Shown here: piece after piece, positions 8,871 through 63,580 of the stretch | How positions within the stretch are numbered: the first letter of the stretch is position 1 | Layout of the letters: every line of letters begins with the position of its first letter | Virus record (IMG/VR): IMGVR_UViG_3300043394_000609 | Length of the DNA: 64,000 nt | Reading direction: 5' to 3' (one strand) | DNA from: a virus | Lineage: Duplodnaviria; Caudoviricetes | Program-made: the position numbers and the translations under genes | The notes under the pieces: generated by a model | Told to the model about the DNA's origin: nothing | The model's database searches: none | What the model saw: the letters and a program-made list of their open reading frames with translations, nothing else

Positions 8871-11800
8871 TTATATTTGACAAGTTATTGGGTCTGATCC
8901 ACAAACACCTAAAGATGTTGCAATACCATTATTTAGTGAATATATCACCGGTTCATTAATCCATGGTTGATTTAATTTATATAAACCATCTGGTGTTGGC
9001 GTGGTTAAACTTTCATTAAAATACCACGTTACATTTTCTATACCATTATTATTTAAATCATTTTCATTGAAAAACACGTTAATTATATTTTCACAACCAA
9101 TACAAGCATCGTCTTTAGTAGACCCATCTGCAAAGTAACAGAACTCGTCTGAAACAACACCTTCTTTATCTATAATGGCATAATATGTCATATCATACTC
9201 TGCAGTATGTGTTAGAGTTGTGTTGCTTGTTATGATGTTATCAATTACCGATGACTCGCTCCAACCGATAAAAATAGAATTATTTGTTGCTGTTGCCGTT
9301 GCCGTTAAGTTAGACCCAATTGCAACATTTTTTGTTTTTCTATAAAAATTAGTACCACTACCATCATCAATATAACCAGTAGCTAAAGGATTAATTTCAG
9401 ATATCACATAAGTTATTTTCACACTATCAGGATCACATACTTGAACCGCACTAACTAAACTAACACATTCAATCGGTGTCGGAGTTGGTGTTGGCGTTGC
9501 GGTTATAGTTAACGTAGGCGTAATAGTTGGCGTAGCCGTTATCGTTACCGTAGGCGTGACTGTTTCTGTTAACGTTGGTGTCGGCGTAACTGTTTCCGTG
9601 GCCGTAATTGTTAATGTAGGCGTAATAGTTGGCGTAGCCGTTATCGTTACCGTAGGTGTAACAGTTTCTGTTAACGTAGGTGTAATAGTTAACGTAGGAG
9701 TCAACGTTACCGTAGGCGTTAGCGTTTCCGTTACCGTAGGTGTCACAGTTAGCGTTACAGTTGGCGTGGCCGTTATCGTTACCGTAGGTGTTATCGTTAC
9801 CGTAGGTGTTACAGTAGGAGTTGGCTCTGGTGTTTCCGTTGGCGTAGCCGTAACAGTTAACGTAGGTGTTATAGTTAATGTTGGTGTAGGCGTAACAGTT
9901 TCTGTAGCCGTTATCGTTACCGTAGGTGTAAAAGTTAACGTAGGTGTTATAGTTAACGTAGGAGTTATAGTTAATGTTGGTGTAGGTGTAGGCTCTGGTG
10001 TTTCTGTTGGCGTAGCCGTAACGGTTAACGTAGGTGTAACAGTTAACGTAGGTGTAACAGTTAATGTAGGTGTAACAGTTTCCGTTACAGTAGGCGTTAG
10101 CGTTTCCGTTACCGTAGGCGTATTAGTTAACGTAGGTGTATTAGTTAACGTTAACGTAGGTGTAACAGTTAACGTAGGTGTTATAGTTGGTGTAGGTGTA
10201 GGTACTCTAGTTGGTTCACAATCAATTAATGGTATCACATCACAAATAGTCGCGCCACTATAAATAAATTCTCGATTATTAAATAATGATGGTATTTCAC
10301 AATTAACATCGTATGGATATTCACCACCATCATATGCACTACTATTTAATTGGTCAGTATAATAGTGATCAATTACCATGTCCAAATCTTCAAAGACTTG
10401 CATTGTATGTTCTAGTAAAATTTCTTGATCAATATTACCGTTGAATAAAATTAATTTATTTGATGGTAGTGTATCACCAGTACAATTTAAATGATAGTAA
10501 ACATTTCTTTCACAATAATTTAAATCAACTTCCTTAACTTCAATTAAAAACCCATCTTGATTAATTAAAAAATCACCTTCAATATAATAATTTTCATCAT
10601 GATCACAACATGGTTCCTCAGGAATACCACCAATAAATAGTTGTTCTGGGTATCTACTTTCGAAGTGATATGGTACTGAATCTATTGAAACCAATGTACC
10701 ATCTGCAAAATATGGATTATTCTCAGCGTATTGATATTTTCTGTTGGTATAAACTCTAAGTTTAGTATTAGGTAGAACTTCAAATTGATGCATGTCACCA
10801 TTTGCTGTTGTACCACGAACAATATCTTTCTTAATTGAACTTAAACAATCAATATTAGTTACTTCAATTTTATTGTAATTATAACCAAACGACACCCCAC
10901 TAATTGGAATGTGTTTATGTGAATTACTAGCATATGGTGCGTTTAAATATTCTCCAGACAATAAGCTATCACCAACAATAACATCCGAAACAATTGTTTT
11001 AACAATATCACCATTTAGTAACGCTAATTGTATATTTTCGAACGTGCTTAAATCCACATTTAAATTAACAATTTTTAAAACAAAACTATCTTCGATTAAA
11101 CCAAAATCAAATGATGGTCGATACTGAATTTTAGGATGTATTGTATAACCACTATAATTGTCACAATATGTTACCCCAGTTTGTGATTCAATTGAACACT
11201 CTTTAGTTGTAATATCGTTATAAACATTTATTATAAATGTTTGTAAATGTGATCTGTTAAATGGGTCGTGTTCACCTTTTAATTGTAGCCCCTCTATTTT
11301 AATTTTTTGTTCATTATTAGCAGCATCTGCAAAAATAAAATCAACAACGTCATCTTCATAAACCTCCGATAACGTAAATGAACAATAATCCGTATCACCA
11401 CCTGTTGGTGTGAATTTAGGATATTCTAATATCGGTCTTTCAGTAAAAACATTGTTTGAATATTGGCAATTACGTATAACATCAACCGGCCAATCATGTG
11501 TGCTTTTTTCATTACCTGTTGCACCGCTAATCGTTAAATAAACATCGCTTTTTAATTTACAATCTTCGGTCCCGCCGTCAAAAACATCACAAGATGTGTA
11601 TCCAGAAACAAATAAACCATTTTCAGCCGGAGCTGTATAATAGTAATTCGCTTCAAAATAAAAATCTAAGTATTCTGAAATTGTACAATCATTTGGACCG
11701 TACTTGAACGATTTAATTCTAATTTTTTCAAAACCATCAGTATCAATAAAAAATTCATAAGATATTTTTGGTTTTTTTGTTGTTTGGGAACAATTTGTTA

Positions 11801-61498: not shown

Positions 61499-63580
61499 TT
61501 AATCGTCCCACCATATGTAATCGTTTATCATTGTTTCACCATCGTAATCATCCATTGTAACAGATGTTATTGTTTCATCACTAACTAAGAAAAACTCTTT
61601 TGTTCCTTGACCTTGGAATATAACCACGAATCTATCTTTTGCTGAATATATATCACTCCAATTATTGTATTGTGTGGTGTAAGTATTTAATAATGTTCCT
61701 GTAAAATCATATAAATTTATAGTGTAAACTCCACCATCTGATTCGTTATAAACCATCATAAACTTATCTTTACCGACTGATATGTGATTATAATAATATT
61801 CAGGAATTGTAATTTCCGAACTAATTCCACTATTTGTTAAAACTCTACAAGCTCCACCACCTTCAGACCATAAAACCATATTACTTGGGTCTAAGAATGT
61901 AGATGAGAAATAATCATTAGGGGTGTTAGTGTTGTCATAATAAGTTGTCGATGTAAATCCAGTACTTCCACTATAAACATAATGTGCTTGGTTAGTGGTG
62001 GACGAATCAGTATAACGTAAATACAATATATCACCAACAGTATTTGCATTGTATTGATAATTTGAATATAATATTGGCTCTAAACTATCAAGAATTGTTC
62101 CATCGACATCAATTAGATTAAAGAACATATCAATCCCGCTGTTTGTACTGTAAAATGCTAAAACTCTATCACCCATTGAGTAAATATTGATATCTGTTAC
62201 ACCTGAAACTGATTCGTTAAAATTCGTAATAGTTACACCGCTAGTTGTGATTGTTAATAAACCCAAAGTATTACCCGTTGTTTCACAAAATGTCTTAAAT
62301 GTGTTGCCAAGATAACCATTTGACGATACCGCTCTATTTGTGCCATTTGTTACAGAATAAGTAGTAAACCCAGTTTGATTATTCAACATATAAACATAAT
62401 CGAAGTAATCGCATACCGGACCAAAATTAACGTAACCAACTTCATTATATAAAGAAATAACCACACTACCATCTACGTTATCATCTGGCCAATAACTTTC
62501 GTCACCAAATAAGTTAATACCATCATAATTAGAACCCCTAACGTGAGTTGTTTCAGTTAAAGTTCCTGTTGTACCATTGTAATGGATTATTTTATAATCA
62601 ACAGCGGTATTGTCCCAATGGTAATAAACCGCACACATTCTATCTGTTCCAAGAAAACGACCTTCTTGACTGGCATATGTGTCTCCTGTAAGTGATATTG
62701 TCTCTAATATTTCACCATCGGTGTTATAAATTTCTAAACTTGTGTGAACATCATCAACTTGGTCTTTAGTCTCAACTGCTATAAAATCAATAAATGGGGT
62801 TATTAAATGGTTAATTTGTGTACCATCCGTCCAAGTTTTGAATGGAATAACCGTACCATCAGGTTTCATAATATATGATGCACCATCACCATTATATACC
62901 CACGACCCATTTTCATATTTTCTAACAATAAAAGAACCGTCACCCATTACCGAATTATAATCCCATTCAATGTCGATATAGTGTGTTTCTGGGTTCCAAG
63001 TGTAAGTATATAAATCAACTCCGTTAAAATATTTTAAGATACCATTATTGGCATCTTCAAATGTAATCCATTTACCTTCTAAACTATTAAAGTCATAACT
63101 ATTTGTTGTCCCACTATATTGACCAACGATGGCGTTTGATGCGTCTGTGAATATTACAAGATTTTCATCACTATTGTTTTGACCTGCAAAATGATAACCA
63201 TATCCTGAATCGGTTAATGGATAAAGGTTGTAATTATTCCAATAAGTTGAATCAACACCTAAATCAATAACTTCAGCGGTGAAATCGGTAAAGTTTAATG
63301 TTGCTGCACCATAGTTACTCGAAGTGGTCATTCTATTTGAATGAACGAATAATTGTGTTTCAACTACTGGTTCGTCAACCGTTAACGTATACGTGTAATC
63401 ATACTCAGCCAAATAGATGTTATAAACACCATATGGATGTGTTGTAATGTTATTAAAAGGGATTGTTTTAGTTCCAAGGTTTACCGTGGTACCTGATGTT
63501 GTCCCCGTATATGGTACAAACGTTACTGTTGCCGTCTTACCACTTAAGTTCTCACTTGTTATTCTTGCTCCTATTGCCAT
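61499..63580 (-). CDS. Large beta-rich (possibly beta-propeller) virion protein
   Basis: 693 aa, Tyr/Thr/Asn-rich, with recurring IY/LID..G.IL-type strands; late motif upstream. Confidence 0.5.
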   Translation of the reverse strand: MAIGARITSENLSGKTATVTFVPYTGTTSGTTVNLGTKTIPFNNITTHPYGVYNIYLAEYDYTYTLTVDEPVVETQLFVHSNRMTTSSNYGAATLNFTDFTAEVIDLGVDSTYWNNYNLYPLTDSGYGYHFAGQNNSDENLVIFTDASNAIVGQYSGTTNSYDFNSLEGKWITFEDANNGILKYFNGVDLYTYTWNPETHYIDIEWDYNSVMGDGSFIVRKYENGSWVYNGDGASYIMKPDGTVIPFKTWTDGTQINHLITPFIDFIAVETKDQVDDVHTSLEIYNTDGEILETISLTGDTYASQEGRFLGTDRMCAVYYHWDNTAVDYKIIHYNGTTGTLTETTHVRGSNYDGINLFGDESYWPDDNVDGSVVISLYNEVGYVNFGPVCDYFDYVYMLNNQTGFTTYSVTNGTNRAVSSNGYLGNTFKTFCETTGNTLGLLTITTSGVTITNFNESVSGVTDINIYSMGDRVLAFYSTNSGIDMFFNLIDVDGTILDSLEPILYSNYQYNANTVGDILYLRYTDSSTTNQAHYVYSGSTGFTSTTYYDNTNTPNDYFSSTFLDPSNMVLWSEGGGACRVLTNSGISSEITIPEYYYNHISVGKDKFMMVYNESDGGVYTINLYDFTGTLLNTYTTQYNNWSDIYSAKDRFVVIFQGQGTKEFFLVSDETITSVTMDDYDGETMINDYIWWDD

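Follow-up and report, generated by a model that had tools for sequence, protein, structure and literature searches.

An [ST]-G-x-T motif enriched in the outer virion proteins of a clade of uncultured jumbo myoviruses is a candidate glycosylation sequon

In mycobacteriophages, virion proteins are reportedly modified by phage-encoded glycosyltransferases; the glycans are said to have been demonstrated, to sit on Ser/Thr-rich C-terminal extensions of the capsid and tail-tube subunits, and to influence immune recognition of the particles. The O-glycosylation pathway of the Bacteroidota, with its sequon D-(S/T)-(A/I/L/V/M/T), is periplasmic, while virions assemble in the cytoplasm. Gnt1 and Gnt2 of Dictyostelium belong to the GT60 (PF11397) family of polypeptide alpha-GlcNAc-transferases. 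The GT60 enzymes of Trypanosoma cruzi (pp-alpha-GlcNAcT) start mucin O-glycans on Thr, which are extended with Galp and Galf (PMC3769586), and the SgtA/BclA3 system of Clostridioides difficile places O-GlcNAc on Thr (Ser is accepted) of Gly-Pro-Thr collagen-like repeats (PMC7157674). Here we describe a tetrapeptide motif, [ST]-G-x-T, in virion proteins encoded by a 64-kb stretch of phage DNA (IMG/VR record IMGVR_UViG_3300043394_000609; hereafter the window, meaning the whole stretch) and by its relatives, a clade of uncultured jumbo myoviruses. An earlier note on this DNA had proposed that the motif is a sequon for virion modification. The excess of the motif is real, arises at the protein level, and is sharply specific, clade-restricted, limited to outer parts of the particle and evolutionarily dynamic. 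Its best reading, to which we assign a probability of roughly 0.45, is that of a glycosylation sequon, the glycan on the virions being a prediction.

The resemblance to the mycobacteriophages lies in phage-encoded cytoplasmic glycosyltransferases that are proposed to act on the phage's own capsid and tail proteins. The difference is that the candidate acceptor is a dispersed, internal tetrapeptide at strand exits in about ten unrelated outer proteins of phages from another host lineage, known from sequence alone; the sites in the window are internal and dispersed rather than gathered in a C-terminal Ser/Thr-rich extension, and the tube protein has none. With the Bacteroidota sequon the motif shares a Ser/Thr acceptor code of three to four residues and the presumed host phylum, but just ahead of the hydroxyl residue Asp is about 10-fold rarer than expected (position -1, 0.1x of background), so that the two are distinct, just as the earlier note had held. 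The SgtA/BclA3 system, a surface glycoprotein with a dedicated glycosyltransferase, is similar in that its (G-P-T)n repeat junctions read T-G-x-T, and some phage homologues contain short TGxTGxTGxT runs; however, the window proteins lack long collagen-like arrays, and Pro never occurs at x.

Across the window the motif is found 59 times against 21.8-22.3 expected, well above the maximum of 36 reached in 1000 shuffles. Shuffling was applied to whole proteins and within blocks of 20, 40 and 100 residues, and the excess persists at every block size, which answers the call of the earlier note for a correction for composition. An unbiased scan of all a-b-x-c patterns (5587 observed) ranks SGxT 12th and TGxT 16th, outranked solely by patterns of the Pro-Thr linkers and by a few infrequent ones with 2-6 occurrences; the same scan on the structural genes of a relative gives the same result. 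A hydrophobic residue precedes the motif at 76% of sites against a background of 35%, in agreement with the earlier note. Four proteins carry the excess, each with p<0.0005 in whole-protein shuffles and p of 0.0003 or less in block shuffles, and a fifth, of 1929 aa, carries it weakly:

61499..63580, minus strand: 693-aa tandem beta-propeller virion protein; 11 sites, 1.7 expected
63434..63580, minus strand: N-terminal 49-residue arm of the 693-aa protein; three invariant motif copies
8871..14558, minus strand: 1895-aa virion protein; 11 sites, 1.3-2.5 expected; phrog_15511 repeats, C-terminal Pro-Thr linkers
15503..16405, minus strand: 300-aa protein with a WGDG (PKD-like) signature; 5 sites, 0.6 expected
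17192..18922, minus strand: 576-aa baseplate-region protein; 5 sites, 0.4-0.7 expected
35388..41177, minus strand: 1929-aa virion protein; 5 sites, 1.2-1.3 expected, p about 0.01

The proportions of [ST]G dipeptides completed by the Thr that the earlier note had counted by eye recur exactly (11 of 16, 11 of 20, 5 of 7 and 5 of 11 in the 693-, 1895-, 300- and 576-aa proteins), as do its enzyme counts for NrdA (0/6) and SNF2 (0/3); PolB has 1 of 7 rather than 1 of 6. Its term "virion-wide" describes a real excess but is too strong for the window phage, because sheath, tube, wedge and variable fiber proteins stand at expectation and the enrichment is limited here to four or five conserved virion proteins. 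There is no excess in the 1124-aa (2 vs 2.0 expected), 1448-aa (2 vs 1.7) and 1583-aa (0 vs 1.5) proteins, the sheath count (3 vs 1.3-1.7) is not significant, and the window's tube, hub, gp6/gp25-like wedge and short variable fiber proteins contain zero copies; a 406-aa protein (1386-2606) is borderline (4 vs 1.3-1.7, p 0.04-0.08). The peptides YTGTT, YSGVT, ISGST, LTGDT and FSGTT, which had been assigned to hub, sheath and fiber proteins, are all present, but in the 693-, 300-, 406-, 576- and 1929-aa proteins and in no identified hub or sheath.

The earlier note had also argued that the motif recurs in non-homologous folds. An all-against-all BLASTP detected no similarity among the enriched carrier proteins, so the excess does not stem from a shared repeat domain; this candidate was rejected on the same blank BLASTP result and on Pfam and PHROGs searches, which show no common family. 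For the SBBP beta-propeller repeat (PF06739), with its Y-V-T-G-x-T-like blade signature, the four window carriers gave no hit up to E 0.1, and the relatives G001, G002 and G006 none up to E 1. Throughout the clade the non-homologous carriers include a beta-propeller, an HK97-type capsid protein, sheath insertion domains and baseplate proteins. Motif copies in window enzymes (29121-30494, 31011-32027 and 57804-60704) are conserved functional sites outside the excess; the DnaB P-loop, PTGTGKTT, is one example, and the exonuclease and PolB each retain a single copy across four genomes.

The specificity of the motif emerges from 231 members of six families in related contigs, which together contain 2046 sites against 226 expected, an approximately 9-fold excess. 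At position 0, Ser is enriched 11x and Thr 7.5x, with Asp at 1.7x and Asn at 0.9x; position 1 shows enrichment of Gly only, and position +3 of Thr only (9x, with Ser at 1.4x, Val at 0.57 and Ile at 0.69). Ser or Thr precedes 77% of all G-x-T in these proteins. The reversed motif reaches 1.7x and the remaining permutations 1.3-2.9x. Leu, Tyr, Phe and Ile are favored at position -1, position -3 is hydrophobic as well, and charged residues are underrepresented between -2 and +5. Ser is drawn from both AGY and TCN codons, and the Gly and Thr codons vary, which places selection on the protein and led us to reject a DNA-level motif. Over all 59 window sites, the position 0 codon before Gly is biased to NNY (AGT, ACT, ACC) against the genome-preferred TCA/ACA, perhaps through a codon-pair effect. 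Searching the literature for the motif as a word returned nothing.

Within families, motif loads are high, some positions being fixed and many variable. The 693-aa protein carries SGKT13, TGTT25, SGTT29, SGTT156, TGDT298, TGFT403, TGNT435, SGVT447, SGVT459, SGST537 and TGFT540; its family averages 10.0 sites against 1.5 expected (115 homologues), and 5 of its 11 sites are retained in at least 90% of homologues, those of the arm (13, 25 and 29) in 98-100%. The 1895-aa family averages 15.2 against 3.6 (16 homologues), with site conservation ranging from 0 to 100%. In the 300-aa family (mean 9.1 vs 0.97, 40 homologues), the motif occupies, in one or more of 42 sequences, 40 distinct alignment columns. 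An invariant W-G-D-G block in this family resembles a PKD-domain signature, and Pfam gives only a weak DUF5004 match; the label "PKD protein" is thus plausible but unconfirmed. The 576-aa family averages 10.9 against 0.64, reaches 18 sites with tandem TGxTGxTGxT runs, and has 54 distinct motif columns among 81 sequences; its distant homologues show a weaker excess or, in several cases, none. A search for contigs of P0160, a motif-free distant homologue, found nothing. Orthologues of the 1929-aa protein have 6, 9 and 5 sites against about 1.2-1.5 expected, and sheath orthologues in relatives 7, 11 and 8 against about 1.3-1.6. Three further window proteins belong here:

50133..52988, minus strand: tail sheath, PHROG sheath core at residues 519-949; motif sites at residues 126, 148 and 239, all in the N-terminal insertion region
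18922..23268, minus strand: 1448-aa protein; 2 sites, at expectation; family mean 9.2 vs 1.8
16408..17211, minus strand: 267-aa protein; 1 site; family mean 2.4 vs 0.24

The relatives consist of many IMG/VR contigs of 200-330 kb, among them G001, the closest long relative of the window (DNA identity 73-88%), and G002, a 93%-complete genome. In G002 the HK97-type capsid protein has 4 sites against 0.5 expected and the sheath 11 against 1.6, of which 9 fall within residues 122-301, an insertion region; the portal and the terminase (packaging enzyme) have 0. The window and G002 sheaths, at 64% identity, have only 2 of 11 sites in common, the remaining positions being occupied by unrelated residues. 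The commonest replacements of a site are near-cognate (SGxS, NGxT and TGxV/I). The tandem runs of some homologues lie in variable, low-confidence loops: at 59 of the 2046 sites the next one follows at a spacing of 3, and runs reach about five triplets, whereas the window sites are isolated. Enzymes in related contigs have the motif at or near zero. When the window is pooled with G001, G002 and G006, there are 239 sites against 52 expected in peripheral proteins and 4 against 5.4 in the inner parts (tube, hub, gp6/gp25-like wedge, adaptor-like). In the window the inner parts are encoded by the following genes:

49298-49786: tail tube
48403-49146: hub-like gene
23328-25615: gp6- and gp25-like wedge genes

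Outside the clade the excess disappears. Nucleotide and protein searches, with a 24-kb block and the 693-aa protein as queries, found no close deposited phage, and the top protein matches of a wedge gene, a Flavobacterium myophage and a 484-kb uncultured phage, reach only 27-29% identity. No excess is seen in the Flavobacterium phage immuto (tail block, 17 vs 11.3), in LR756508, the phage of 484 kb (3 vs 2.4), or in G007, a complete phage of 297 kb (97 vs 97.3), and on these three control genomes a general trait of myovirus tail/fiber proteins or of Thr-rich Flavobacterium-phage proteins was rejected. The homologous sheath and capsid proteins of G007 retain 0 of 15 G002 sites, often with only the [ST]G or only the Thr left, and hence these folds do not need the motif.

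Specificity, clade restriction, outer location and turnover make a tag that is read by a trans-acting factor plausible. On this account, [ST]-G-x-T has been introduced again and again into those parts of the clade's virion proteins that face outward, usually behind a hydrophobic residue where a beta-strand ends, and a trans-acting factor probably reads it. The likeliest reader would be a cytoplasmic glycosyltransferase that the phage itself encodes; acting on folded virion proteins before or during assembly, it would glycosylate one or other of the motif's two hydroxyl residues and leave the particle partly sugar-coated. We infer that an enzyme reads the motif, which enzyme and which residue these may be, and that the window's own genome would encode the same enzymes. 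The fuller version of this account, in which the motif is a true O-glycosylation sequon that a phage glycosyltransferase restricted to the clade (GT-A, Glyco_tranf_2_5 or a GT60 subtype) recognizes on folded proteins, is put forward tentatively, at appreciably less than even odds.

The evidence on glycosyltransferases comes wholly from relatives of the window phage, and none is encoded within the 64 kb of the window. They are encoded in G001, G002, G003, G005 and G006, up to ten per genome. A region of G001 that is syntenic to beyond the window end has two weak GT-B genes and one GT-A gene, adjoining phoH and a sigma factor. G002 encodes a GT60+GT7 fusion, five GT2, two GT4, a GT47-like enzyme and a UDP-galactopyranose mutase; in the fusion (L108:13589-15988) the GT60 domain is joined to a GT7 beta-4-galactosyltransferase-like domain. 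PF11397 scores 221.5 bits in G001 (E 2.8e-65), 157.9 in G002 and 198.8 in G005, against a curated cut-off of 21 bits, and is found in none of 14 control genomes, nor in the motif-free immuto and LR756508. A G001 operon, GT60-GT2-GT11 (the last of the alpha-1,2-fucosyltransferase family; L124:5617-8317, G001 179616-182316), would by its domain content build a Fuc-Gal-GlcNAc-type glycan.

The G002 fusion and mutase parallel the protist GlcNAc-alpha-Thr cores that are extended with Galp and Galf (PMC3769586). The known acceptors of protist GT60 enzymes are, however, Thr runs such as KPPTTTTTTTTKPP, which are closer to the Pro-Thr linkers of these phages than to [ST]GxT; moreover, GT60 is seen here in relatives only, and one phage that bears it, G007, has no motif excess. 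GT60 is widespread, in at least 568 stretches of viral contigs, and many loci flanking it have a motif ratio near 1. Given its presence in G007, GT60 alone does not explain the motif and was rejected as a sufficient predictor of it. The motif-positive G001, G002 and G006 have in common two glycosyltransferases that G007 lacks, a GT-A of 259-262 aa encoded next to late genes and a Glyco_tranf_2_5 enzyme; on this phyletic pattern, which includes one negative genome only, they are leads that fit better than GT60.

(Pro-Thr)n linkers occur in poorly conserved fiber-like proteins of the window (427, 406, 324, 396 and 1124 aa; 66-8856) and at residues ~1453-1696 of the 1895-aa protein. Their resemblance to protist acceptors suggests that they would be more natural substrates for a GT60-type enzyme than [ST]GxT.

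Several observations weigh against a glycosylation sequon. The most exposed, variable fiber proteins lack the motif, and those with Pro-Thr linkers show no [ST]GxT excess, so that the phage has two separate Thr-rich features. The motif load of the window lineage is about half that of G002. Several sites never vary and lie in segments that hardly vary themselves, as would suit a role in structure or at an interface. The earlier note had called the motif rare in enzymes; this is true of the low per-enzyme counts but not in the sense of active avoidance, for the non-structural remainder of G002 contains 33 sites against 24.9 expected. Glycosyltransferases, whose clusters it had suggested looking for, are plentiful in close relatives and include the polypeptide-type GT60, yet a link between any of these enzymes and the motif is conjectural: GT60 does not track the excess in G007, and the phyletic pattern of the better-fitting enzymes rests on that single negative genome. 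Finally, part of the G002 set may modify DNA, since a thymidylate-synthase-like gene adjoins one of its clusters. This gene (L113:2672-3964, 102672-103964) encodes a 430-aa protein with an internal insertion and lies ~3.5 kb from six sugar genes (GT4, GT4, GT2, unknown, UDP-galactopyranose mutase, GT2); it could act as a pyrimidine hydroxymethylase whose product is used for DNA glycosylation.

The most serious alternative, although we consider it rather unlikely, is a clade-specific structural idiom without any reader, in which a strand end and a tight Gly turn are completed by a cross-strand or capping pair of hydroxyls from S/T(0) and T(+3), and which the lineage would have inherited and re-invented in its beta-rich core virion proteins. 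AlphaFold models were obtained for the 693-aa protein (pLDDT 89, all-beta, Foldseek matches to double beta-propellers) and for the 576-aa protein (pLDDT 74), for which Foldseek gave no clear PDB fold match. In these two models the sites map to strand exits, hairpin turns and low-confidence loops and not inside strands, consistent with the surface loops that the earlier note had expected, and 10 of the 13 sites in modeled regions directly follow a strand or lie in hairpin loops of 2-4 residues. This strand pattern suggests that the sites are exposed. It is also the location expected of a generic turn or ST-turn cap, and the idiom would further account for the hydrophobic residues at -1 and -3, as in a strand, for the many sites that are invariant across 41-98% identity, for the near-cognate replacements, for the lack of avoidance by enzymes and for the absence of the motif from horizontally exchanged fiber modules. 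However, a generic cap should allow Asx in place of Ser/Thr and Val or Ile in place of Thr, and no such interchange is seen: Asn and Asp at position 0, and Val, Ile and Ser at +3, lack the enrichment usual for a turn or cap motif. Nor does the idiom readily explain why the same folds function without the motif in outgroup phages, why sites turn over where the local sequence is otherwise unrelated, or why inner beta-rich parts lack it, and arrays at a spacing of 3-4 residues in low-confidence loops cannot each form a hairpin.

A glycosylation sequon also competes with a docking or assembly tag, bound non-covalently by a decoration or cement protein, an assembly chaperone or a neighboring subunit, which we regard as improbable. 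The N-terminal arm of the 693-aa protein is nearly invariant among 65 sequences of 41-98% identity, and yet it is disordered in the monomer model (pLDDT <50), for which reason it is probably an inter-subunit arm; with its three invariant copies it looks as an inter-subunit interface should, and confinement of the excess to virion proteins agrees with such a tag. A fixed interface is not easily reconciled with arrays in variable loops or with how fast most sites turn over, and no candidate binding protein was found. A sequon for some other modification, with a phage or host enzyme phosphorylating or acylating Ser/Thr, for example, would draw on the same arguments of specificity, distribution and turnover as glycosylation, but glycosyltransferases are abundant in the clade while no kinase or acyltransferase turned up (no search for them was made), and we judge it less probable still. 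It is highly improbable that the motif is a by-product of Thr/Ser/Gly-rich composition, low-complexity linkers, replication slippage or a DNA-level signal: the carriers are Thr-rich and short TGxTGxT arrays do occur, but a composition or low-complexity artefact is rejected by the global and local (20-100-residue) shuffles and by the reversed and permuted motifs (1.3-2.9x vs 9x), equally Thr/Ser/Gly-rich proteins (the 1124-aa protein and the immuto fiber proteins) show no excess, and the codons vary, with Ser from both families.

If something does read the motif, virion modification in this large clade of giant, uncultured phages would become accessible from sequence: one could predict which sites are modified, track their gain and loss like the glycan shield of animal viruses, and test enzyme-acceptor pairs in E. 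coli with no need for a phage culture. It would follow, too, that clusters of phage glycosyltransferases, whose targets are commonly taken to be DNA or host surfaces, can act on the particle itself. Should [ST]GxT prove to be an O-glycosylation sequon, it would be the first defined acceptor code for phage virion glycosylation, and widespread aquatic jumbo phages would display an evolving glycan coat on capsid, sheath and baseplate. Should it instead be a structural idiom, it would represent a rare, lineage-specific building block of four residues spread over unrelated folds.

PDB sequence searches with the 576- and 300-aa families and with the GT60 and GT-A enzymes gave no match. The window itself, of ~32% G+C and coding almost entirely on the minus strand, contains 38 open reading frames (ORFs), in which myovirus tail and baseplate genes are intermixed with replication genes (NrdA/B, DnaB, an exonuclease, UvsX, a SNF2 helicase and PolB). 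In G001, a 1092-aa ORF (L124:12125-15403) combines CarboxypepD_reg with an outer-membrane beta-barrel (E 5e-50) in a TonB-dependent-receptor-like architecture and adjoins a non-specific endonuclease and an M23 peptidase.

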